Numbered from the stretch's first letter, positions 773 to 26,701 are shown. The stretch: DNA of 61,720 bases from Bacteroidota bacterium (GCA_042584405.1 JBHOSR010000003.1:1-61720); one strand, 5' to 3'. Program-made: numbers and translations. Notes: generated by a model not told the origin, from the sequence alone.

Positions 773-1918
773 CTACATTATTGTTTCTTCTGATATTTCC
801 CAATTAACACCTCTTTCTTTCAATCCTTTCTTCATATATTCGACACATTCCGGGCATTTACCCATATATTCGGGAGGAGATATTCCTTTATGAGTATAAA
901 GTCCATCGGCCATCATCCTAATTGCCATGGTAGCTGTATAACCAGTAGTTCTTGCCATAGAAATTACATCAGTTTCAGGATCATATTTATCAAACATATC
1001 AATTGTATATTTGATTTTTTTCCCATTCTTTATTCCTTCAATGATGGATTGAAAAATAGTGATATCGCCTTCACCCTGTTTCAGTTTCCAGTTTGGAAAC
1101 AATACTTGTGCTGTCATTTCAAGCGGACTAATTTTATTACCTTTAATATTAATAGTTTTTTCTTTTGAAAAGAAACCAAGTTCGCGTAACACCGACATCT
1201 TTTCAATATGTCCAGGATACCTTAGTGTCTTCTCTTTCATGTTTGGTGCTTCAATAGTTTGAGCCAAGGTTCTCAATCCATCGGTATTAAATGCTTCTAA
1301 AGTACCTATTTTCGGAAAAAATATATATTCCGGATCTGATAATGCTGGACGTACGATTTCGTAACCATTTTCTATATAACGAGCAGGCCGAATATATTCT
1401 TCAATTACATCAATTGGAGAAAAAACAGCTTTATACTCGCTTGGCCATTCTCTAATTTCAGGTAATCCACCAACAAATGTTAAAATATTATCTACCTTAT
1501 CCAGTTGCTGAGCTACATTCATAATCAATGCACTGCCCATTCCGGGATAAACCCCGCAATCCATAATCATGGTCACATTATTCTCTTTGGCTAACTGATC
1601 AAGTTCGAAAGGATCTTCTTCGTAAAATGCAATACAAGCACAATTTTTACCTGCTCTTATTATTGCTTTGGCAGTTTCAAATCCCATAAAACCCGGAACT
1701 GCATTGACAACGAGATCATAATCGCTCGCTAGTTTTGTTACATCCTCAGGATTTGATAAATCTTTTTGAAGTTTTTTTATTTCGGGACATTCAGCCTGTA
1801 CTTTATCTAAAGCTTCATTACTAAAATCTGCAACAGTTACTTCAAATCTTTCTTCTTTATTTAAATCTATTGCCATTGGTGCTCCAACCAAGCCAGCACC
1901 TAAAACTACAATTTTCAT
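773..1918 (-). CDS. Saccharopine dehydrogenase family NAD(P)-binding oxidoreductase.
   Basis: N-terminal Rossmann motif MKIVVLGAGLVG. Length and overall pattern are typical of saccharopine/carboxynorspermidine dehydrogenase-like proteins. Confidence 0.75.
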   Translation of the reverse strand: MKIVVLGAGLVGAPMAIDLNKEERFEVTVADFSNEALDKVQAECPEIKKLQKDLSNPEDVTKLASDYDLVVNAVPGFMGFETAKAIIRAGKNCACIAFYEEDPFELDQLAKENNVTMIMDCGVYPGMGSALIMNVAQQLDKVDNILTFVGGLPEIREWPSEYKAVFSPIDVIEEYIRPARYIENGYEIVRPALSDPEYIFFPKIGTLEAFNTDGLRTLAQTIEAPNMKEKTLRYPGHIEKMSVLRELGFFSKEKTINIKGNKISPLEMTAQVLFPNWKLKQGEGDITIFQSIIEGIKNGKKIKYTIDMFDKYDPETDVISMARTTGYTATMAIRMMADGLYTHKGISPPEYMGKCPECVEYMKKGLKERGVNWEISEETIM

Positions 1919-2132: not shown

Positions 2133-2140
2133 TATATTTG
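2133..2140 (+). promoter_or_regulatory. Candidate Bacteroidota -7 promoter box (TATATTTG, matching TAnnTTTG) for the corrinoid operon.
   Basis: Motif lies 16 nt upstream of the ATG at 2156. Confidence 0.3.
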
Positions 2141-2155
2141 GATATAATCAATATT

Positions 2156-2821
2156 ATGGATACAATTCTCGAAAAACTATCAAATTGTGTTGAGAGGGGA
2201 AAAGTTGATAAAGATGCTTTATTCCCTCCTGACATGAAAGACTTGCCTGGATCTGATGAATTAACTCTTGCTGCTATTCAAAATAAAATTCCTCCTGAAG
2301 ATATTCTTAACCTAGCCCTAATACCGGGAATGGAACGTATAGGATTAAAATTCAAAGAAAATAAAGTTTTTGTTCCGGAAGTATTAATGGCTGCAAAAGC
2401 AATGTCAAAAGCAATGGAACATCTAAAGCCTTTTTTTCAAAAAGGAATTGCCAAACAAAAAGGAACTTTAGTAATAGGAACCGTAGCAGGCGATTTACAT
2501 GACATTGGAAAAAACCTTGTTTCTGTAATTGTTGAAGGAAGTGGCTGGGAAATTATTGATTTAGGTACAAGCGTAACAACCGAAAAGTTTATTGAATTTG
2601 CAAGTAAGTATCCTGATTGCTATGTTGGTTTATCAGCACTTCTTACTACTACTATGATAAACATGGAAGCTACAACCAAAGCTTTAAAAAACAAATTTCC
2701 GAATATTAAAATCTTGATTGGTGGAGCACCAGTTACTAAAGAGTTTTCGAAAAAAATAGGTGCTGATTTTTATGCACCAGATCCTCAAGGAGCATTAGAA
2801 TATTTAAATAAAATAACATAA
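2156..2821 (+). CDS. Methyltransferase cognate corrinoid protein (B12-binding cap plus Rossmann B12-binding domain).
   Basis: DxHxxG motif GDLHDIGKN (nt 2492-2509), then SALLTTT and LIGGAPVT motifs. I prefer the ATG at 2156 over the TTG at 2138. Confidence 0.85.
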   Translation: MDTILEKLSNCVERGKVDKDALFPPDMKDLPGSDELTLAAIQNKIPPEDILNLALIPGMERIGLKFKENKVFVPEVLMAAKAMSKAMEHLKPFFQKGIAKQKGTLVIGTVAGDLHDIGKNLVSVIVEGSGWEIIDLGTSVTTEKFIEFASKYPDCYVGLSALLTTTMINMEATTKALKNKFPNIKILIGGAPVTKEFSKKIGADFYAPDPQGALEYLNKIT

Positions 2822-3711
2822 TGATTGATTTATTCGAAAAAATCAAATCACAAAAAATTCTATTAGCTGATGGAGCTTGGGGAACCATGCTTTTTGAGAA
2901 AGGATTGCAGCAAGGAGAATGTCCTGAATTATGGAATATTACAAATAAAGAGAGGGTATTTGACATAGCAAAGCAATATGTTGCAGCAGGTTCTGATATA
3001 GTAGAAACAAATAGTTTTGGTGGTTCAGTTATAAAACTTGAGCATTATAATTTAGGATCAAGAACTGAAGAAATAAATATTGAAGCAGCGAACATATCAA
3101 GAGAAGCCGCAGGTAATGAGAAATTAGTTTTTGGATCAATGGGACCTTGTGGAAAAATACTAATTATGGGTGACGTAACTGAAGATCAAATTTATGATTC
3201 TTTTAGTCTCCAAGCGAAATCCCTTGTAAAAGGGGGTTCAGATGCACTTATTATTGAAACAATGACTGCTTTGGATGAAGCTTTAATTGCTATACGAGCT
3301 TGTAAAGAAAATACATCTGTTCCAATAATTTGTACTTTTACTTTTGATAAAACTATAAATAATGATTACAGAACAATGATGGGGATAAGCCCAGAAGAAA
3401 TGTGTAAAGCACTCATAAGTGCAGGTGTTGATGTGGTTGGATCTAACTGTGGAAATGGTTTCGATGGAATGATAGAAATTGCTAAAGAATTAAGAAAAAT
3501 AAGCTCCAAAATTCCTATTATGATTCAAGCCAATGCAGGCATGCCTGAGTTAGTAGAAGAAAAAGTTGTTTATCCGGAAAAACCAGATGAAATGGCAGAA
3601 AAAATACCAGCATTAATTAACCTAGGAGTTAGTATAATAGGGGGTTGTTGTGGAACAACGCCAGCTCATATCTCAAAATTTTCTCAAATCATAAATCAAT
3701 TTGCACATTGA
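2821..3711 (+). CDS. Homocysteine S-methyltransferase-domain protein (MetH N-terminal/BHMT-like Zn-dependent thiol methyltransferase).
   Basis: Zn-ligand pattern VGSNCG ... GGCCGTTPAHI. The ATG overlaps the upstream TAA (TAATG). Confidence 0.85.
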   Translation: MIDLFEKIKSQKILLADGAWGTMLFEKGLQQGECPELWNITNKERVFDIAKQYVAAGSDIVETNSFGGSVIKLEHYNLGSRTEEINIEAANISREAAGNEKLVFGSMGPCGKILIMGDVTEDQIYDSFSLQAKSLVKGGSDALIIETMTALDEALIAIRACKENTSVPIICTFTFDKTINNDYRTMMGISPEEMCKALISAGVDVVGSNCGNGFDGMIEIAKELRKISSKIPIMIQANAGMPELVEEKVVYPEKPDEMAEKIPALINLGVSIIGGCCGTTPAHISKFSQIINQFAH

Positions 3712-4391
3712 TCAATATAAAAGAATTCTCTATAAACCTTAACGAAATTAATATCAATCCAAAAGATATTAGTAAAATAATCGGATATAAGGAAGGCGAG
3801 ATTCCAGAAATGATTGACCAGGAGATTGAATCCGTACTGTCTGAAATTAATAAAAATTGTAGTTTAAAAGGTGGATATAGAATAATTGAAAATGTTCAGT
3901 TTGATAAAGAATCTACTATAGTTCAAAATATAACATTTCATACAAAAGGAGTAATTACTAATTTTTTAAAAGGTAGCGATTCGATCGCTATTTTGGTATG
4001 CACAGCGGGTAAAGAAATAAGTGATTGGACAAACAACTTATTTAAAGAAAATAATTCTCTTAAAGCTTATGTTGTTGATGTTGCTGCTTCTATTATGGTT
4101 GAAAAAGCTGCCGATGTTGTACAAAGTAGAATCGAAAAGCTTATAAAATCAAATCTCAAGAAAATTACAAATCGATATAGTCCTGGATATTGTGATTGGG
4201 AGTTAAAAGAACAATTTAAACTTTTCTCACTCTTACCAGATAATTTTTGTGGTATTCAATTAAATGAAGAAGCTCTTATGCTACCAACAAAATCGATTAG
4301 TGCAATAATAGGTATTGGTAACAAAGTTGAAAAAAAGGCATATCAATGTGATGTATGCAACAGGAAGGACTGTATTTATAAGCTTAAATAA
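3708..4391 (+). CDS. Stand-alone vitamin-B12-dependent methionine synthase activation (reactivation) domain-like protein.
   Basis: RYSPGYCDWELKEQFKLFSLLP ... GIQLNEEALMLPTKSISAIIGIG resembles split-MetH activation subunits. Proposed TTG start at 3708 overlaps the upstream TGA. There is no in-frame ATG near the N-terminus. Confidence 0.65.
   Translation: MINIKEFSINLNEININPKDISKIIGYKEGEIPEMIDQEIESVLSEINKNCSLKGGYRIIENVQFDKESTIVQNITFHTKGVITNFLKGSDSIAILVCTAGKEISDWTNNLFKENNSLKAYVVDVAASIMVEKAADVVQSRIEKLIKSNLKKITNRYSPGYCDWELKEQFKLFSLLPDNFCGIQLNEEALMLPTKSISAIIGIGNKVEKKAYQCDVCNRKDCIYKLK
3784..3809 (+). repeat. Direct repeat copy B, identical to nt 1-26.
   Basis: Exact 26-nt identity. Confidence 0.8.
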
Positions 4392-4418
4392 AGTTATACA
4401 TTTAATAATCTAAAAATT

Positions 4419-5852
4419 ATGAATCCTGCTAATATATCCGAAATTGTAAAACCTAACTTGTCTTTGCTCAGCGAAGAACAAATTAATAATGTGCATGAAT
4501 TTTCGATAAAAATTTTAGAAGAGACAGGAATTAAAGTTGAATCAAAATCTGCCCTCCAAATATTTGCTAAATCGAATGCTGTAAAAGTTAAAAATGATAT
4601 TGTTTTTATTCAGCGCGAAATTATTGAGCATTCAATAAAGTTTGCTCCTAAAACTGTTGATATTTATGATAAAAAAGGTAAGGTGTCTTTTAATTTAGGG
4701 AATAATAATGATACCTTTTTCGGTATTGGTGTTACAAATACCAATTATCAAGATATTGAAACAAATAAAATTCGGCCATTCACACGCAAACATCAACAAA
4801 ACTGCACCAAATTAGGCGATTTACTAAATAATTATGATACAGTTTCAACCATAGGAATTCCATCAGATGTTTCGGCAGATAAAATGGATTTGTACAATAC
4901 TGTCGACATGTATGCAAATACCACAAAACCATTAATTCTTTTAATCTCTGAAGGTGAAAACATTAATAAAGTATTTGATCTACTTTCAAACTTGCATGGT
5001 GATATTTCTAACAAGCCATTTATTATACCTTATTTTAATCCTATTACACCTTTAGTATTTAATGAAGCTACAAGTGATAAAATGATAGCTTCTATTAATA
5101 GTAATTTTCCAATTATTTTCTCTAACTATAGCATGTATGGTGCTACTTCTCCTATTACAGAAGGTGGTTCATTGGCTTTGCTAAATGCTGAATTGCTTGC
5201 AGGATTAGTTTTCAGTCAATTAATTAAAGAAGGTAGTCCTATTATTTTAGGTAGCTTGCCTGCTTCCTTTAATATGACATCCATGGGAAGTAATTACACT
5301 ACTTCTTCATATTTATTGAATTTGGCTTGTGCAGAAATGATGCTTTTCTATTCAATACCACATTGTGGAACATCGGGAAGTGGAAAAGCATGGGGCCCTG
5401 ATTTAATTGCAGCTGGAGAATATTGGATGAATCATATAACAAGCTGTATAGGAAAAGCTGGTTTAGTTCCATTTGTTGGTGGAAGTTTTGATTCCATGGC
5501 ATTTTCTCCTGCAAGTGCAGTATTTTCAGATTTTATAATTGGCGAAACTAAAAAGCTCTCCAAAGGCTTCATCTTAAATACTGAGACAGTAGATCTTGAA
5601 GAAATTAAATCAATTGGACATGGTGGTAATTATCTTACCTCAAATCAAACGCTTCAATCATTATCAAATTTTGGAGAAACGAATAAAATATGGCCATCGT
5701 TAAACATGCATTCATGGGAAGAATTAGGATATCCTGAAGCAAAAAAATATTTAATCGATCATTCCAAAGAATTATATAATCAAGCTGAATCATTAGTGAA
5801 GGAAAATATAGATGTAATAAAAAAAGGAGAAGAATTCATTAATAGGCTTTAA
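4419..5852 (+). CDS. Trimethylamine methyltransferase (MttB) superfamily protein, non-pyrrolysine type (substrate:corrinoid methyltransferase).
   Basis: N-terminal pattern LSEEQINNVHEFSIKILEETGIKVES...FAPK and the ~477 aa length are typical of the MttB family. The ORF is uninterrupted, with no in-frame TAG. Confidence 0.8.
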   Translation: MNPANISEIVKPNLSLLSEEQINNVHEFSIKILEETGIKVESKSALQIFAKSNAVKVKNDIVFIQREIIEHSIKFAPKTVDIYDKKGKVSFNLGNNNDTFFGIGVTNTNYQDIETNKIRPFTRKHQQNCTKLGDLLNNYDTVSTIGIPSDVSADKMDLYNTVDMYANTTKPLILLISEGENINKVFDLLSNLHGDISNKPFIIPYFNPITPLVFNEATSDKMIASINSNFPIIFSNYSMYGATSPITEGGSLALLNAELLAGLVFSQLIKEGSPIILGSLPASFNMTSMGSNYTTSSYLLNLACAEMMLFYSIPHCGTSGSGKAWGPDLIAAGEYWMNHITSCIGKAGLVPFVGGSFDSMAFSPASAVFSDFIIGETKKLSKGFILNTETVDLEEIKSIGHGGNYLTSNQTLQSLSNFGETNKIWPSLNMHSWEELGYPEAKKYLIDHSKELYNQAESLVKENIDVIKKGEEFINRL

Positions 5853-5868
5853 GAAGAAAATTCTCTTT

Positions 5869-7185
5869 ATGCAAAAAGCTAATCCCGGCGAACAGTCCAA
5901 GATAGGTTTTTGGACAAGCACATCACTTGTAGTAGGAAACATGACAGGTTCTGGAATTTTCCTTCTTCCTGCTGCTCTTGCATTTTATGGTGGAATTAGT
6001 CTCTTCGGTTGGCTTTTTACTACAATTGGTTCAATTTTTTTAGCCCTGGTTTTTGCTCGATTAAGTAAAATCATACCCAAAGCTGGTGGTCCGTATGCTT
6101 ATGCACGAGAAGGTTTTGGCGATTTTGCAGGATTTATTGTGGTATGGGGTTATTGGGTTTCCATTTGGTGTGGAAATGCAGCGATTTCTGTTGCTGGAGT
6201 TGGTTATTTGTCGGTTTTTATTCCTGTATTAAAAAATAATAATTTTCTATCGGGAGCATTGGCAATTCTTGCGATTTGGATTTTCACGTATATCAACTCA
6301 ATGAACATCAGAAAAGTTGGTAAAGTACAAATTGTTACAACTATTCTAAAAATAATTCCATTAGTTGCATTTGGCACAATTGGCTTTTTATATTTTAAAG
6401 TTGAGAGCTTTACACCATTTAATGTGAGTGAAAAATCAACTTTCGATGCTATAACAAGTTGTGCTGCCTTAACGTTATGGGCTTTTTTAGGCCTTGAGTC
6501 AGCTACTATACCATCAGATAAAGTTAAAAATTCCCAAAAAACAATTCCAAGAGCAACTATTACAGGAACATTAATCGCTGCTATAATTTATATTTCGGCT
6601 ACTATGGCCGTAATGGGAATTATTAGTCCTTTTGAATTACAAAAATCTTCTGCTCCATTTGCCGATGCAGCCAAGGTTGTTTGGGGAAACTGGGGATTAT
6701 ATATAGTAGCGATCGGAGCTGCTATTTCTTGTTTTGGAGCACTAAATGGTTGGATATTGATACAAGGCCAAATGCCTTATGCAGCAGCCAAGGATAAGTT
6801 ATTCCCTGAAAGATTTCAAAAAGTTTCCAAAAAAAATGTCCCTATATTCGGAATCATCTTTGCAAGTATTTTGGCTACTATACTGGTATCAATGAATTAT
6901 ACTAAAGGATTAGTTGGCATGTTTTCTTTTATGATTATGCTTGCAACATTAACTGTACTATTCCCTTATGTGTTATCATCATGTGCTGAAATAACGATTT
7001 ATTTTAAGAAAAAAATCAAAGTACCCAAAAAAACTTACATTTCAGTATTATTCATTTCTATTCCTGCCCTCCTCTATTCAATTTGGGCTGTAATTGGGTT
7101 GGGTTTTGAAATTATTTTATGGGGAGTTTTACTTTTATTATTTGGTATTCCGATTTACCTAATTTTAAACTTTAAAAGAAAATAA
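5869..7185 (+). CDS. APC-superfamily amino acid/amine permease (basic amino acid/polyamine antiporter-like).
   Basis: About 12 hydrophobic segments. N-terminal motif VVGNMTGSGIFLLPA ... GGPYAYAREGFG is typical of AdiC/PotE-like transporters. Confidence 0.8.
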   Translation: MQKANPGEQSKIGFWTSTSLVVGNMTGSGIFLLPAALAFYGGISLFGWLFTTIGSIFLALVFARLSKIIPKAGGPYAYAREGFGDFAGFIVVWGYWVSIWCGNAAISVAGVGYLSVFIPVLKNNNFLSGALAILAIWIFTYINSMNIRKVGKVQIVTTILKIIPLVAFGTIGFLYFKVESFTPFNVSEKSTFDAITSCAALTLWAFLGLESATIPSDKVKNSQKTIPRATITGTLIAAIIYISATMAVMGIISPFELQKSSAPFADAAKVVWGNWGLYIVAIGAAISCFGALNGWILIQGQMPYAAAKDKLFPERFQKVSKKNVPIFGIIFASILATILVSMNYTKGLVGMFSFMIMLATLTVLFPYVLSSCAEITIYFKKKIKVPKKTYISVLFISIPALLYSIWAVIGLGFEIILWGVLLLLFGIPIYLILNFKRK

Positions 7186-7282: not shown

Positions 7283-7316
7283 AAAAAAGACTTCTAGAAA
7301 ACTAGAAGTCTTTTTT
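7283..7316. terminator. Bidirectional rho-independent terminator.
   Basis: AAAAAA-AGACTTCTAG-aaaa-CTAGAAGTCT-TTTTTT, a 10-bp perfect stem. Confidence 0.8.
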
Positions 7317-15476: not shown

Positions 15477-18400
15477 TTATTCCTTTATTTCCTGAATAGG
15501 AGCATGACTGTTTTTTTCATATTTTGTCTTACGCTTATGTAATATTATAGCCACCTCAACATCTTCACGTTCAGGTCTGACTCCCGTCCAAAGATGTTTT
15601 AGGTAAACACGAACATCATTCAGTAACATAATTAAAACTGGGAAAAATATTAAAATAAATATTGTACCGACTGCCACCCCATAAGCTAAGCTAAGAGCCA
15701 TTGGAATTAGGAATTGTGCTTGCACACTTTTTTCCATAATAATTGGGAATAACCCAACAGCAGTAGTCAAAGTTGTTAGAATAATAGGTCTTAATCTTAG
15801 TTTACCAGCTTCCACAATTGCATCATGCACATTTCTTCCTTCCAATAAATTACTATCGTATTTCGACAGAAAGACAATGGCGTCATTAATAATTACTCCC
15901 GTTAAAGCAATCATCCCCCACAAGCTAATAATTGATAATGGCTGACCATGAATTCCATGACCCCAGAATACACCTAGCATTGATAATGGAATCATAGCTA
16001 TAATAATAATTGTCTGATTAAAACTTTTAAAATGAATGATCATTACAAAAATGATCATAGCAAAAGCGACAAGAAAATACATCCTTATTTTTTTTAATGC
16101 TTCATTGCTTGACTTTTGTTGACCTTGATATTCATAACGTATGCCTGAATATTGAGCTAATAATTCGGGCATTATTTCAATACTTATTTGATTTAATATT
16201 TCCGGTACTGGTGCATATGGATCAACAGTTTCTGCTTCAATACGAATCTCACGCGATCCATTATAACGAGTAATAGCAACAGGACCTCTTTCCAAGTGAT
16301 AATCTGCTAACTCAGTTAATGGATATTCACCCATTGGAGTTTTGATTTTCATTTTTTCCATTTGACCAATGGTAAGTCTGTCTGACTTTGGATAGCGAAC
16401 CCAAACTCTTAGTTCATCTCTTCCCTCTTGTAAGCGTTGTGCTTGACCGCCATAAAATCCCTGCCTGATTTGGCGTGAAATTGTATTTTCATTTAATCCT
16501 AAAAAATATGCTTTAGGTTTTAAACTCAATCTAACTTCTTGTTTCCCTAATGCGATATTTTCATTAATATCTTTCAATTGTGGTAACTCAGTCAATCGAT
16601 TCATCAGATAATTCTTGGCTTCTTCCAGTTCCTGAAGGTTTTTAGACATTAAACTAATTGATACTGGAGATCCCCATCGATTTCTTCCTGCCACTGAAAA
16701 TTTCCTTGCATCAGGAACAGCTCCTATTTTTTGTCTAACTAGATTCGCTATCTTATATCCTGTAAGGTCATATCCTTCTAGATCAATTGGATAAACACGA
16801 ATATTTCCTGCATGAGCTCCAGATTCTTGCCCGCTAAATGCACTTCCTACACTAGTTCTTACCTGTTCTATAATATTTCCATCAACTCCCTGTTCTTTTG
16901 AAAGCTCCTCATTTACTTCCCAAATTGCTTTTTCAAATCGAGCCAAAAATTCTTTAGTTTGCTTTTCACCATCACCGGGTGTAAATGCAATATTTAACTC
17001 AAAACTGTCAAAATCAACCATTGGGAAGAAGGTGCTCTTTATGTGTCCTCCCATAAATAATCCGGCAGTAATTAAAAATAATGCAATTGGTATAGCAATA
17101 ACAATATGACGCCATTTTAATAACCATTCCAACATATAATGGTAAATATCCTCTCGAAGCCATACAATAAATCTTTCGAAGTACTTTTTAATTCCTTTAT
17201 TTTTAGATTCTAAACTTCGTCGGCTTAATACGTGATGAGAACTTAAATGTGCAGGTAATACAAAAAATGCTTCGACCAATGAAAAAACTAAACTAACAAT
17301 AATTACAACAGCAACATCGTACATCATTTCCATTCTTGTTCCAGATAAAAACAACAATGGCGAAAAAGCAATAACTGTTGTTGTTACTGATGTTAGAACC
17401 GCGGGATATACTTCCATTGTACCATCCACTGCTGCCTGCATTGGAGTTTTACCTCTTTCGAAATGCAGATAGATATTTTCAGCAATTACAATTCCGTCGT
17501 CAACCAAAATACCAACTACCAGAATCATCCCAAATAGTGAAGTCATATTAATTGTAATCCCAATAAAGTTCCCCAAAATAAACATAGCTAAAAAGCTGAA
17601 TGGAATACCCCAAGATACCCATAAGGATAATCGAACGCTTAAAAACATGGATAATGCTAGAATAACCAGAACTAATCCTATTAAGCCATTTCTTGTGAGT
17701 AAATCTAAACGACTATGTAAAATATCGAGGTATGCTCTTGTTATTTCAAGATTTACACCCTGATTTTTTTCGTTAAACTCTTTTGTATATTTTATTGCGT
17801 ATTCAGTAATTGCATCTAAATCTTCTTCTGGTAATTTCTCAACATATATTGAAACCGATTTCTTACCATTTATCCAAGATTCACTTGATGTATCAGCAAA
17901 TTTCTTTTTTACTTCTGCAACATCTCTTATTCGAATAAAACTCCCATCGGCCTGTCCTTTAATAATAATTTCTCCAATTTTGTTGGGATCAGTACTTCTT
18001 GATCGTAATCGAATTAACAATTCTTCTTCTTCCGATTTTATTTGTCCACCAGAAACATCTTGGTTGTTTGTTTGAATAGCGCTAATTAAATCATCAAAAG
18101 TAAGATTATACCTAAGTAATTCTTCTTCTTTTATTTCGACAGAAATTTCCGGTGAGGGATATCCTGATAAAGTAACCTGACTTATAACTCCTGATGAAAG
18201 AAAATCTTCCTCAACCCGCTGTGCATATTCTTTCAAGGTCATCAGATTTACAATTGAACTATCACCCGCGAGTAAAGACATTCTAAGTGCACCAGCTCTG
18301 GATCTACGTTTTGCAACAATCGGCCTTTCAGCTGCCGTAGGTAACGACGAAATTCCATCAACTGCATTTTTTACTTCCATTAATATTTCATCAATAGGAT

Positions 18401-22380: not shown

Positions 22381-23568
22381 TTAATTTGATATTTTATCTA
22401 AAGCAATTGCTAAATCATTAATTATATCTTCAACATTCTCTATTCCTACAGAATATCTAACCAATCCTTCAGTAATATTAGCTGCAAGTTTATCTTCTTT
22501 TGATACACCCGCATGTGTCATTGAAGCTGGGTGCTGTATTAAACTCTCAACTCCACCCAGTGATACTGCTAATTTTGCTAGATGAACATTATCCATAAGG
22601 ATTTTTCCAGCTTCAAAACCTCCTTTTAAGGCAAAACTTATCATACTTCCAAAACCTTGCATTTGCTCCTTAGCCAATTTGTGTTGCTGAAAAGATTTTA
22701 AACCCGGATATTTTACCCATTCCACTTTAGGATGACTTTCAAGGAATTCTGCAACTTTCATGGCACTTTCCTGGGCTTTATCAATTCTTAAGGATAAAGT
22801 TTTAACTCCTCTTATTACCAAATAAGCTTGGTGAGGATCCATGTTCCCTCCCATGTAAATCATTGTTTTACGAATAGTATTGTATAATTCATTATCTTTT
22901 GCAACTATTATACCGCCAACAATATCGGCATGACCATTAATAAATTTGGTTAAAGAATGTAAAACAACGTCAGCTCCTAAATCTAAAGGCTTTTGAAGAT
23001 ATGGACTGCAAAAGGTATTATCAACACAGACTAAAATATTATGTTTGTGTGCTATTTGAGAAGCTTTCTTAATATCTGTAAGCTGAATTGTTGGATTAGC
23101 TGGAGTTTCAAGGTAAAGCAATTTGGTATTAGGTTTAATAGCTTTTTCAATTTCATCAAGGTTTGAAGTATCGATATATGAATACTCTACTCCAAATTTT
23201 GAAAAATGACTTTCCATTACGCCTCTACTTGGACCATAAACAGCACTTGTACTTATCATATGGTCTCCCTGGCTTAATAGAGCCAAATAAACAGTTGTAA
23301 CAGCAGCCATACCAGAAGCTAATGCAATTCCTCTATACCCATTTTCTAATTCTGCAATTTTATTTTCAAGTACATTTATTGTTGGATTCCCAATTCTTGT
23401 ATAGATATAACCCTTTTCTTTACCGGCAAATAAATCAGCACCGTGTTGTGCATTTTTAAACGAAAAAGTTGATGTTTGATAAATCGGAGTTACTGCACTT
23501 CCGAATTCATCCTGATAATCACCTGCATGTACTAGTTTGGAGTTAAATCCCATGTTTTTTGTTTCCAT
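22381..23568 (-). CDS. PLP-dependent methionine gamma-lyase / Cys-Met metabolism family enzyme.
   Basis: PLP-Lys motif HSLTKFINGHAD. Family-typical TRIGNPT and VESLIQHPASMTH. Confidence 0.85.
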   Translation of the reverse strand: METKNMGFNSKLVHAGDYQDEFGSAVTPIYQTSTFSFKNAQHGADLFAGKEKGYIYTRIGNPTINVLENKIAELENGYRGIALASGMAAVTTVYLALLSQGDHMISTSAVYGPSRGVMESHFSKFGVEYSYIDTSNLDEIEKAIKPNTKLLYLETPANPTIQLTDIKKASQIAHKHNILVCVDNTFCSPYLQKPLDLGADVVLHSLTKFINGHADIVGGIIVAKDNELYNTIRKTMIYMGGNMDPHQAYLVIRGVKTLSLRIDKAQESAMKVAEFLESHPKVEWVKYPGLKSFQQHKLAKEQMQGFGSMISFALKGGFEAGKILMDNVHLAKLAVSLGGVESLIQHPASMTHAGVSKEDKLAANITEGLVRYSVGIENVEDIINDLAIALDKISN

Positions 23569-24957: not shown

Positions 24958-25839
24958 TTATATACTCCCAACTAATTCTTTAATTTTATGCCAGCTATTA
25001 ACAATCATTAATGTTAACTCTCCTGAACCATATTCAACAATCGTTTGTCCATTAGTCATAGCTTTTGTAAAATTTTCATCGTAAGGTAAACTGGAAATAT
25101 GTGCAATTGATTCATCATTCAGAAATTGAATAATATCCTGTGTTACTTTCGGATTTATATCATATTTATTAATAATACATCCAGCTTTCAAATTGAATTT
25201 TTTAACCAATTCATGTACTCTTTTTAAATCGTGCAATCCCGATAAAGATGGTTCTGTAACTAAAACAACAAAATCAGCTCCTGAAAGTGAGGAGACAACA
25301 GGGCAACCTATTCCAGGAGAACCATCAACAATGATATAGTTCATTTTATTTTCTTTGGCCAATTGTTTAGCCTCATTTTTAACTTTAGCAACTAATTTAC
25401 CAGAGTTTTCGGCTCCTATTCCCAGTTTTGCATGAACAAGTGTATTTCCGACTTTGGTTTTAGAAATATACCAGTCTCCAACATTTTGATTGAACATATT
25501 AATAGCTTCAACAGGACATACCCGTGCACAATATCCACAACCTTCACAATTCAAAGTTTTAATTGTATATAGATCATTTATTACAGAAATTGCGTCAAAT
25601 CGGCAAATATCAGCACACATCCCACAATTAGTACATTTATCAGAATCAATATTAGCAATTACACCACTGAAAAAATCTTCTGAATTTATTACCGTTGGTT
25701 TCATTAATAAATGCATATCAGCCGCATCAACATCACAGTCTGCAACAATAGCATCGTTACCAGATAAAACTGCAAATGATGCTGTTACAGATGTTTTGCC
25801 TGTTCCTCCCTTACCGGAAATAATTACAATCTCCTTCAT
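24958..25839 (-). CDS. MinD/ParA-superfamily P-loop ATPase with an inserted 2x[4Fe-4S] ferredoxin domain.
   Basis: GKGGTGKTS P-loop. CTNCGMCADIC and CEGCGYCARVCP motifs. Confidence 0.8.
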   Translation of the reverse strand: MKEIVIISGKGGTGKTSVTASFAVLSGNDAIVADCDVDAADMHLLMKPTVINSEDFFSGVIANIDSDKCTNCGMCADICRFDAISVINDLYTIKTLNCEGCGYCARVCPVEAINMFNQNVGDWYISKTKVGNTLVHAKLGIGAENSGKLVAKVKNEAKQLAKENKMNYIIVDGSPGIGCPVVSSLSGADFVVLVTEPSLSGLHDLKRVHELVKKFNLKAGCIINKYDINPKVTQDIIQFLNDESIAHISSLPYDENFTKAMTNGQTIVEYGSGELTLMIVNSWHKIKELVGSI

Positions 25840-25846
25840 CTCGGTA

Positions 25847-26701
25847 CTAATTATTTAAATCTAAAATGTAATTCTTAACATTTTGAAGTTCTTCTTTAAA
25901 CTCAGGTATTTCAGAATATATCAATTTCCCTTTTGAATAAAGCTCTGCTACTTTTCTGTTATTAGGTATTTTTGCCAGGATTGGAATATTATTACTCACA
26001 CAGTAATCAACAACATCATTATTCCCAATACCATATCGATTAATTACTACTCCAAAATCCTTATCCAATTTTTTCATAGTTTCAACTGCAAGTTTCAAAT
26101 CATGCAGACCAAAAGGAGTTGGTTCCGTGACAAGAATTACAAAATCTACTTCTTTTGTTGCTTCAATAACAGGACATGAAGTTCCAGGTGGTGCATCAAA
26201 TATTTTTACTATATGCTGATTAAAAGTTTTATCAATATAATCATTGGTTTGAGCTATCAATGGTACGGCTTGTTCTTGCCCAATATCCAAACGACTTTCA
26301 ATAAAAGAAATATTTCCTTTTGTGTATTGATTTAATGTACCCATTCTTTGTTTAATCATAGGTAAAGATGATACAGGACATAACTCAGAACAAGCAAAAC
26401 AGCTATGGCATAATTCCGGAAAAACCATTATTTGTGGACCTAATTGTATAACAGCATGGAAATTGCAAACTTTCTGACATTCGCCACATAAAGTACAAGT
26501 ATCTTCCTTCCACTCAGGAATCATTTTATATTTTATTTCTTCTTGAATTAATTCCCCCTTAATAAATAATCCGGAGTTAGGTTCTTCAACATCCAGGTCT
26601 GTTAAAACTACTTTTTCAGTTTCTGAAAAAAGGGCGGCTAAATTCGTTGACAAGGTTGTCTTGCCTGTTCCGCCCTTTCCACTAGCGATAGTAATCTTCA
26701 T
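25847..26701 (-). CDS. MinD/ParA-superfamily P-loop ATPase with an inserted 2x[4Fe-4S] ferredoxin domain (paralog).
   Basis: GKGGTGKTT P-loop. CTLCGECQKVC and CHSCFACSELCP motifs. Confidence 0.8.
   Translation of the reverse strand: MKITIASGKGGTGKTTLSTNLAALFSETEKVVLTDLDVEEPNSGLFIKGELIQEEIKYKMIPEWKEDTCTLCGECQKVCNFHAVIQLGPQIMVFPELCHSCFACSELCPVSSLPMIKQRMGTLNQYTKGNISFIESRLDIGQEQAVPLIAQTNDYIDKTFNQHIVKIFDAPPGTSCPVIEATKEVDFVILVTEPTPFGLHDLKLAVETMKKLDKDFGVVINRYGIGNNDVVDYCVSNNIPILAKIPNNRKVAELYSKGKLIYSEIPEFKEELQNVKNYILDLNN

Follow-up and report, generated by a model that had tools for sequence, protein, structure and literature searches.

An MttB-family methyltransferase operon from a Bacteroidota bacterium as a candidate folate-independent, B12-dependent methionine synthase

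Can methionine be formed on a corrinoid protein from a methylated amine, with no folate taking part? This question is raised by five genes at positions 2156-7185 of a 61,720-nucleotide stretch of DNA from a Bacteroidota bacterium (GCA_042584405.1, JBHOSR010000003.1:1-61720), the whole of which is referred to here as the window. The genes encode a corrinoid protein, a homocysteine S-methyltransferase module (Hcy-MT), a stand-alone MetH-type activation protein (Act), a non-pyrrolysine (non-Pyl) member of the MttB superfamily and an APC-superfamily permease (Table 1). A first reading of the sequence, hereafter the original prediction, had taken them for a split MetH in which an MttB-family enzyme stands in for the pterin module. 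The idea that a methyl group passes from an amine via B12 to homocysteine is reasonable and is already in the literature as a hypothesis (Williams et al. 2022), and the locus is another instance of a described cluster type. Our analysis newly adds that the cassette is modular, that MttB and the permease, in some loci with a lysine dehydrogenase homolog, form a conserved module and that betaine-binding residues are lost, and it offers a concrete hypothesis on the methyl donor. Judging from sequence, we consider it probable, at roughly 0.6, that the operon forms a complete corrinoid methyl-transfer relay from donor to B12 to homocysteine that would give methionine without folate.

Domains, motifs and gene order of the operon

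All domain calls of the original prediction were recovered with Pfam and NCBIfam models. The corrinoid protein carries the B12 cap and B12-binding domain of a MetH (B12-binding_2, PF02607, 64.6 bits; B12-binding, PF02310, 80.4 bits), and the motifs DLHDIG (DxHxxG), SAL (SxL) and GG are all present. Its best match in the PDB is the Moorella corrinoid protein 1Y80 (163 bits), ahead of MttC (118 bits) and MetH (~100 bits), and family models likewise describe it as MtgC/MttC-like. Hcy-MT matches S-methyl_trans (PF02574) with 232.5 bits over residues 14-289 of 296. It is a homocysteine-binding module of the MetH type, as had been proposed, scoring 162 bits to the homocysteine domain of Thermotoga maritima MetH (1Q7M) compared with 60 bits to betaine-homocysteine methyltransferase (BHMT) and 34 bits to HMT. 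The Zn-binding cysteine triad C210/C276/C277 is invariant in 120 of 120 homologs. D17 and E146, at positions that we take to be homocysteine contacts in MetH and BHMT, are invariant among the homologs as well.

Act matches Met_synt_B12 (PF02965) only partially (36.6 bits), and its sole sequence match in the PDB is 1J6R, the stand-alone Thermotoga activation protein TM0269. Structure prediction supported its assignment as a MetH-type reactivation protein. The AF2 model has a pLDDT of 92.2, lower (~66) in the C-terminal tail; the top Foldseek match is again 1J6R/TM0269 with a target-normalised TM-score of 0.86, and all 19 of 19 significant matches are MetH activation domains. The S-adenosylmethionine (AdoMet)-binding motif RxxxGY, here RYSPGY, is invariant across the Act family. 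The AdoMet-binding activation domain of MetH is thus present, on a separate protein. Five cysteines (C162, C181, C214, C217 and C222) are also invariant in the family, one of them directly after the RxxxGY motif and the last three forming a C-terminal CxxCxxxxC tail; in the alignment, TM0269 has Gly at the position of C162 and ends ahead of this tail. The cysteines suggest a Zn or Fe-S site, possibly a point of electron entry.

The MttB homolog belongs to its superfamily by a wide margin (MTTB, PF06253, 185.2 bits against a cutoff of 25, residues 12-454 of 477), and it is a non-Pyl member because its open reading frame (ORF) has zero internal stop codons. It scores 129.6 bits to Desulfitobacterium hafniense MtgB (DhMtgB), 115 bits to Pyl-containing MttB and 83 bits to 4YYC, and is roughly equidistant from the first two. 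The Pyl-dependent trimethylamine methyltransferase MttB can be ruled out, given the lack of an in-frame amber codon and a score of 225 bits to TIGR02369, for which the cutoff is 525. The closest genome match to the gene, in the species collection, is 65% identical. In all four soluble proteins the catalytic motifs expected for a methyl relay are present.

By contrast to these modules of MetH, the one that binds methyl-tetrahydrofolate (methyl-THF) was not found. Pterin_bind (PF00809) is absent from the five operon proteins, from the two flanking genes and from 30 further window ORFs, comprising 29 of the 35 ORFs of at least 150 amino acids at 9500-61720 together with 72-695. A pterin probe based on a hidden Markov model (HMM) had no match in the 61.7-kb window. 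The original prediction of an operon without a pterin module therefore holds and extends to the scanned window ORFs. The same set of ORFs contains no MTHFR, MetE or RamA, and the MtgD pterin module, the RamA-like DUF4445 and DUF1638, which together mark an MtgBCDE-type system, do not appear among its Pfam matches.

ORF calls and direct reading of the sequence confirmed that the five genes are co-directional and tightly packed. The corrinoid and Hcy-MT genes meet at TAATG (2819-2823), the Hcy-MT and Act genes overlap by TTG/TGA at 3708-3711, the MttB gene begins after a gap of 27 nucleotides and the permease gene after one of 16. Although the first ORF is open from an upstream TTG, ATG 2156 is the more likely start and gives a protein of 221 amino acids, matching the ortholog length; for Act, TTG 3708 is the likely start and gives 227 amino acids, as in the orthologs. 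With its genes translationally coupled or 16-27 nucleotides apart, 2156-7185 is predicted to be one operon.

A relay in four steps can be proposed for it. The AdiC-like permease would bring in an N-methylated cation and may export the demethylated product in return. The non-Pyl MttB enzyme would then move one methyl group onto Co(I) of the small corrinoid protein, and the MetH-type Zn enzyme would pass it from CH3-Co(III) to homocysteine, making methionine and regenerating Co(I). On oxidation to Co(II), Act would restore the cofactor by AdoMet-dependent reductive methylation, using electrons from flavodoxin or ferredoxin, perhaps through the conserved cysteine site. In this scheme we infer which way the methyl group travels, that homocysteine accepts it, what donates it and that the permease works as an antiporter. 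The outcome would be a folate-independent, B12-dependent methionine synthase composed of a portable B12/Hcy-MT/Act cassette and a swappable methyl-donor enzyme.

Table 1. Features of the operon and its surroundings, in positions of the window
Feature	Position	Strand	Basis or remark
Sacchrp_dh-family oxidoreductase, L-lysine 6-dehydrogenase homolog	773-1918	-	Pfam Sacchrp_dh_NADP and Sacchrp_dh_C
Candidate Bacteroidota-type -7 promoter element TAnnTTTG, TATATTTG	2133-2140	+	Read in sequence
ORF of the corrinoid gene	2138-2821	+	Open from TTG 2138
Corrinoid (B12-binding) protein	2156-2821	+	B12-binding_2 and B12-binding
Stand-alone MetH-type homocysteine S-methyltransferase module (predicted methyl-corrinoid:homocysteine methyltransferase, MT2 role)	2821-3711	+	PF02574
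ORF of the activation-protein gene	3645-4391	+	Upstream TTG 3645 disfavoured as start
Stand-alone MetH activation protein (Act), TM0269-like, with Cys-rich C-terminal tail	3708-4391	+	PF02965
Non-pyrrolysine MttB-superfamily methyltransferase, clade 1 (predicted substrate:corrinoid methyltransferase, MT1 role)	4419-5852	+	PF06253
APC-superfamily permease near the arginine/agmatine antiporter AdiC	5869-7185	+	AA_permease_2
Hairpin GACTTCTAG-AAAA-CTAGAAGTC, 9 bp, with an A-run and a T-run at its flanks	7289-7316		Read in sequence

Two candidate signals frame the operon. The upstream element fits TAnnTTTG, which we take to be the consensus of Bacteroidetes sigma-A promoters. The downstream hairpin is likely a bidirectional terminator that separates the permease gene from a convergent Dpp7 gene. 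It was not listed by a consensus terminator scan, and the scan for promoters and terminators was no more informative than shuffled controls.

Elsewhere, the window has T9SS (type IX secretion system) sorting domains, Dpp7 and Omp28, which are of the Bacteroidota/FCB (Fibrobacteres-Chlorobi-Bacteroidetes) type, together with anaerobe-style CbiA/Fer4 genes. Paired CbiA/ParA-like P-loop proteins with 4Fe-4S ferredoxin inserts, which are typical of anaerobes, are encoded at 24958-26701 on the minus strand and also in a Bipolaricaulota locus (L004, 1990-3698; here and below, L numbers identify the loci surveyed). A pyridoxal phosphate-dependent enzyme of Cys/Met metabolism (22381-23568, minus strand, 516 bits) lies ~15 kb from the operon, and one is also found ~5 kb from the corresponding operon in L003 (16492-17673). 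Such an enzyme could supply homocysteine or degrade methionine.

Recurrence of the operon and modularity of the cassette

We surveyed 80 genome loci, plus look-ups, from the MttB side, annotated with HMMs built for this analysis, and 80 metagenome loci from the Hcy-MT side. The group of MttB homologs to which the window protein belongs, termed clade 1 here, is large, with more than 2,000 relatives at E <= 1e-20. The complete five-gene order recurs in three further loci (L003, GCA_042579485.1; L010, CAYXUU010000057.1; and L014, CAYQWA010000018.1), all from Bacteroidota metagenome-assembled genomes (MAGs), so that it is identical in four MAGs including the window, and the flanks differ. Partial versions were found in L019 (HcyMT-MTTB-APC), in a Melainabacteria MAG (L055, MTTB-B12-HcyMT) and in a KSB1 MAG (L077, MTTB-Act-B12). 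Most Bacteroidota loci in the MttB-side survey have MttB followed by the permease and nothing more. Because both the five-gene order and the MttB-permease pair recur, the arrangement is not due to chance; like the domain identities, catalytic motifs and operon structure, this recurrence across lineages is directly observed.

An unbiased census of neighbors within 5 kb of 84 clade-1 MttB genes gave an APC permease at 29 loci, a Sacchrp_dh-family protein and other MttB paralogs at 16 each, a corrinoid protein and an ABC-transporter ATPase at 10 each, MtbB at 8, Hcy-MT at 6, lysine-ketoglutarate reductase (LKR) at 5 and Act at 4. In the 29 loci the permease is directly downstream of MttB, which bears out the functional link between the two that had been assumed from the operon. 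MttB and permease are thus a conserved module in itself, and most copies occur without the homocysteine cassette. In Bacteroidales loci that lack the corrinoid/Hcy-MT/Act trio, no hidden corrinoid or MT2 gene was found upstream of MttB; the genes there are unrelated and variable (acyltransferase, GT2, ROK, GH88, PagL and DcaP).

The trio, in turn, occurs with other methyl-donor enzymes. Hcy-MT, B12 and Act genes adjoin URO-D-family methyltransferases in seven loci (L089-L091, L096, L097, L130 and, from Rosettibacter firmus, L005). Examples with the URO-D methyltransferase at the position of MttB are L005 (9266-12692), L097 (6080-9642) and L091 (1256-6412); in L091, a CobW-type Zn metallochaperone gene is inserted between Hcy-MT and Act. 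These cassettes suggest methionine formation from other donors, for example, methoxylated aromatics or methylated thiols. A second MttB clade, with the order MTTB-Act-B12-HcyMT, is represented in L113, L126, L135, L137 and L138. Its members are 68-72% identical to one another and 23-28% identical to the window MttB. A gene for a sodium:solute symporter (SSF) follows the four genes in L126 (5132-10657). The B12/Hcy-MT/Act trio is thus a portable cassette that stands beside three donor enzymes, namely MttB of clade 1, MttB of clade 2 and URO-D. We also noted a possible variation in L133 (549-4297), in which an unassigned N-terminal region of ~300 amino acids is fused to a B12 cap and B12-binding domain in a protein of 509 amino acids, followed by Hcy-MT and by an APC permease of the window family (HMM score 558). 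The 509-amino-acid protein may be a fused MT1-corrinoid variant.

Across these contexts the core proteins are clearly related. The window corrinoid protein is 66% identical to its L003 ortholog, 57% to the one in L007, where the cassette is B12-Pterin_bind-Act, and 53-55% to those of URO-D cassettes; the window Act is 44% identical to that of L007 and 40-41% to those of URO-D cassettes. Act also precedes a short MetH of ~800 amino acids in L134, L159, L160 and L164. The original prediction had regarded the MetH-type reactivation module in place of RamA as a second unusual feature. This part of it is not upheld, as the Act family also serves the pterin cassette of L007 and the short MetH of L134, L159 and L160. 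Similarly, the cysteine motif of Act was seen in L003, L005, L007, L091, L097, L126, L134, L159 and L160, irrespective of whether the partner is a homocysteine cassette, a pterin cassette or a short MetH. We rejected the motif as a special trait of the window operon, because stand-alone Act proteins have it whatever their context. The B12/Act core is thus found with varied methyltransferase partners; in its B12/Hcy-MT/Act version, the enzymes recruited time and again are non-folate methyl donors.

The MttB-family enzyme, the permease and the methyl donor

Which donor might the clade-1 enzyme use? In MtgB, glycine betaine is contacted by Y97 and F356 (cation-pi) and by R312 and H348 (carboxylate), and R312 is kept in the enzymes for carnitine, proline betaine, gamma-butyrobetaine and phosphocholine (PMC13080624). 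According to a pairwise HMMER alignment at ~30% identity, all four residues are replaced in the window MttB, with Y97, R312, H348 and F356 corresponding to I103, C316, F352 and S359, respectively. Of the replacements, C316, F352 and S359 are invariant in 120 clade-1 homologs. As the carboxylate anchor R312 corresponds to an invariant Cys, acidic betaines, which had been on the list of donors put forward initially, are unlikely. We rejected glycine betaine and acidic betaines as predicted donors on these active-site residues, and an identity as glycine betaine methyltransferase MtgB on the same pairwise mapping. By eye, members of the second MttB clade have Gln, a gap, Glu and Ser at the positions of MtgB R312, H348, F356 and Y97.

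The permease matches AA_permease_2 with 206.5 bits and the AdiC structures with 304 bits. It remains below the equivalog cutoffs, with 380 bits to the AdiC model NF007929 (cutoff 574) and 352 bits to TIGR00905 (cutoff 409), and is thus classified by sequence as a relative of AdiC and not as AdiC itself. The AdiC site residues N22, S26, Y93, N101, W202, E208, W293 and Y365 are kept. Among the 29 MttB-linked orthologs, the changes I23M, C97I, M104I and S203A are fixed and A96S and I205L are nearly fixed. This pattern fits a cationic amine or a basic amino-acid derivative as the predicted substrate, and the permease is presumed to be an importer or antiporter of the methyl donor.

The gene divergent from the operon (773-1918) may point to a class of donors. 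Its product scores 207 bits over the full length to 3ABI, an L-lysine 6-dehydrogenase (PMC10413350), and the next PDB match has 75 bits. It reaches only 28 bits for carboxynorspermidine synthase, and there is no curated lysine-6-dehydrogenase family model for comparison. Its homologs, at 45-81% identity, neighbor either clade-1 MttB or a stand-alone Hcy-MT gene. One (81% identical) is co-directional and upstream of MttB in L011 (3812-4954); others are convergent right after the permease in L017 (12778-13923), L018, L021, L022, L023 and L030, or one gene further off in L024, L026, L029 and L038. The other genes that flank these MttB-lysine-dehydrogenase loci are unrelated and variable. The 773-1918 gene probably belongs to the same functional module as the operon.

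Lysine epsilon-amine enzymes of the Sacchrp_dh family recur beside clade-1 MttB, in 16 of 84 loci, and they are not all of this type. In Desulfobacterales, clade-1 MttB is followed by a saccharopine dehydrogenase (295 bits to 1E5L), and the loci also encode an LKR (269 bits to the LKR domain of human AASS). Two non-orthologous lysine epsilon-amine systems beside one MttB clade make N-epsilon-methylated lysine, for example, trimethyllysine, the best current candidate for the donor, albeit a tentative one. That the clade-1 enzymes are cobalamin-dependent methyltransferases of N-epsilon-trimethyllysine or another N-epsilon-methyl-lysine is a possibility that we regard as rather doubtful. To our knowledge, this substrate class has not yet been reported for the MttB superfamily, and our literature search found no paper linking MttB enzymes with saccharopine dehydrogenase or trimethyllysine. 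Two considerations weaken the lysine lead. Firstly, lysine-6-dehydrogenase-like genes are also seen at loci that show no clade-1 MttB: in L168 (6652-7791) the gene immediately precedes a stand-alone Hcy-MT, and in L090 (3217-4341) it is near a URO-D cassette. Secondly, a single demethylation of trimethyllysine does not give lysine.

In one Desulfobacterales-type arrangement (L044, 9977-17059), the order is non-Pyl MttB of clade 1, saccharopine dehydrogenase, LKR, Pyl-type MttB and Pyl-type MtbB, with in-frame TAG codons at 15479-15481 in the Pyl-type MttB and at 17057-17059 in MtbB. L048, L062, L074 and L085 have a similar arrangement. Such a combination of pyrrolysine methyltransferases and a full saccharopine pathway is unusual. 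If the lysine hypothesis is true, clade-1 MttB in Desulfobacterales would take the first step of a pathway in which a quaternary amine becomes tertiary, then secondary, and is converted to lysine and on to saccharopine; dimethyl- and monomethyl-lysine, formed on the way, would be the substrates of the Pyl-type MttB and MtbB paralogs. In the window, the operon would act as a methyl-lysine:homocysteine methyltransferase, and the demethylated lysine skeleton would go to the lysine-6-dehydrogenase homolog encoded next to it. The MttB clade is large and orphan, and the recurrent lysine epsilon-amine link supplies a concrete, inexpensive hypothesis on its substrate.

Related systems, alternative explanations and significance

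The closest known system is a gene cluster in MAGs of Ca. Electryoneota, consisting of a non-Pyl MttB/MtgB homolog, Hcy-MT, a corrinoid protein and an activation protein. It was proposed, as an independent bioinformatic hypothesis with no donor named, to carry out corrinoid-dependent methionine synthesis, and its presence was noted across diverse bacteria (Williams et al. 2022, PMC9324843). The window operon has the same four soluble components, clustered and with a non-Pyl MttB that belongs to neither the MtgB nor the MttB clade, and the function proposed agrees too, a match made by description only. The Williams text mentions no linked permease or lysine-catabolic gene, whereas the window operon includes a permease gene and adjoins a lysine-6-dehydrogenase homolog.

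Genetic evidence is available for a related system in Ruegeria, in which one corrinoid protein, MtgC, serves both the MttB-family MtgB and a split MetH, with MtgD as the pterin module, reactivation by RamA-like/DUF4445 and DUF1638 proteins, and no PF02965 protein (Mausz et al. 2025, PMC12478193). MtgBCDE of Ruegeria pomeroyi and the split MetH of Phaeobacter inhibens (PMC12478193; Price et al. 2018, bioRxiv 10.1101/192971) resemble the window operon in that a single B12 hub joins an MT1 of the MttB family to a corrinoid protein and a PF02574 module, both stand-alone, and in linking amine demethylation to methionine synthesis. They differ in that MtgD is essential whereas the window operon has no pterin gene, in that the window operon would rely on a TM0269-type AdoMet-dependent protein for reactivation, and in that the MtgBCDE genes are mostly dispersed in aerobic Proteobacteria whereas the window genes are all in one operon. 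The donor in the MtgBCDE system is glycine betaine, and the window MttB lacks the glycine-betaine-binding residues of MtgB.

Other systems share single aspects. MtgB/MtgC/MtgA with RamA of D. hafniense and MtpB/MtcB/MtyB/MthB of Eubacterium limosum use the same MT1 superfamily and the same three-component relay logic, but a pterin-binding MT2 delivers the methyl group to THF, and activation requires ATP; enzymes of this type keep the R312 carboxylate anchor, which is Cys in the window MttB. In Thermotoga maritima, MetH (TM0268) works with the separate TM0269 (1J6R), with which the window Act shares the fold and the RxxxGY motif. TM0268 holds the homocysteine, pterin and B12 modules in one chain, whereas the window has separate proteins. 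The core methionine synthases MesA-D/core-MetE (Price et al. 2021, PMC7857596; PMC7005905) use methyl-corrinoid and not methyl-THF as the immediate donor, as proposed here, but they are MetE-like (PF01717 lineage) with a methyl source that is, where known, a different one, and the window Hcy-MT is of the MetH type. The net chemistry proposed for the window, from an N-methyl donor and homocysteine to methionine, is that of BHMT, which has a Zn-thiolate domain of the same family. BHMT is a single enzyme that transfers the methyl group directly and without B12, and the window protein is much closer to MetH.

Several observations, in addition to the two that weaken the lysine lead, weigh against a dedicated folate-independent methionine synthase. 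For every member of the family, the relay is a prediction from sequence. The genome survey bore out that a cluster without a pterin gene recurs, but a homocysteine cassette lies near clade-1 MttB in only 4-7 of 84 loci. Consequently, the clade does not in general serve to make methionine, and in most genomes the methyl group would reach partners encoded elsewhere. The original proposal that a methylated amine and homocysteine yield methionine thus fits the domains, motifs and recurrence of the cluster but does not describe the MttB clade as a whole. Rfam had no match anywhere in the window at gathering thresholds and no credible match at 1850-2250 with relaxed thresholds, so that no SAM (AdoMet) or B12 riboswitch was seen that would connect the operon with the regulation of methionine. 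The Ca. Electryoneota MAGs with the described cluster have a normal full-length MetH (Williams et al. 2022, PMC9324843). One 8.9-kb metagenome contig (L098) carries both an Hcy-MT gene (1055-1933) and an ORF of ~1216 amino acids (3002-6652, minus strand) with a PF02574-type match; the length of the latter is consistent with a full-length MetH and, if so, stand-alone homocysteine modules can coexist with canonical MetH. Finally, the corrinoid and Act proteins of related pterin-type cassettes (L007, and L093, in which Hcy-MT adjoins a Pterin_bind gene) are 44-57% identical to those of the window, and a distal pterin module could therefore also use the window corrinoid protein.

The last point leads to the strongest alternative, which resembles MtgBCDE: the trio would be a housekeeping split MetH whose pterin partner is encoded elsewhere, the MttB enzyme would be mainly catabolic and feed THF, and methionine from the amine would be a side branch via the common corrinoid protein. 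We consider this unlikely, though well worth weighing. Precedent is provided by Ruegeria, where MtgC serves transfer from MtgB to MtgD (THF) and from MtgD to MtgE (methionine) (PMC12478193), and the closely related proteins of L007 and L093 are what it would lead one to expect. It would also accommodate the lone Hcy-MT genes that are common (L006, L092 and L104), the many MttB-permease modules with no adjacent corrinoid or MT2 gene, and the link to lysine-catabolic genes, which suggests catabolism of the donor skeleton. However, there is no pterin gene in or near the four complete operons, nor in the scanned part of the window. It is the homocysteine module, and not a pterin module, that is translationally coupled to the corrinoid gene, and three unrelated types of MT1 occur with this cassette in the absence of a pterin gene. 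The alternative and the methionine relay are not mutually exclusive, because both allow methyl flow from MttB to the corrinoid protein to homocysteine.

Far less probable is a purely catabolic operon in which the S-methyl_trans protein acts as an MtbA/MtaA-like MT2 on a thiol other than homocysteine and no methionine is made. Donors and acceptors do vary within the PF02574 family, and one report indicates that corrinoid MT2 enzymes can accept non-native thiols (PMC13618148). Against this stand the much closer relation of the window protein to the homocysteine domain of MetH than to BHMT or HMT and its partnership with a MetH-specific activation protein. In addition, the residues presumed to contact homocysteine are invariant, and relatives of the protein are annotated as methionine synthase in the sources. 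A fortuitous adjacency, or lack of co-expression, of an MttB-permease pair and a fragment of a split MetH unrelated to it is the least probable explanation of all, since, although the two parts are each found alone in many genomes, the stop and start codons overlap or lie 16-27 nucleotides apart, the order is identical in four MAGs with different flanks, and analogous arrangements with the second MttB clade and with URO-D genes occur in several phyla.

In conclusion, should the predicted relay work, anaerobic Bacteroidota and several other sediment and gut-type phyla would make methionine from environmental methyl donors with B12 but without folate. A connection of amine demethylation to methionine synthesis, recently shown in aerobic marine Proteobacteria, would thereby reach anoxic habitats; cobalamin demand would rise, as would the number of routes for methylated amines that release no trimethylamine. 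The combination of one B12/Hcy-MT/Act core with MttB of clade 1, MttB of clade 2 or URO-D suggests that methyl sources are plugged into methionine synthesis in a general manner. The system is widespread and can be tested directly now.

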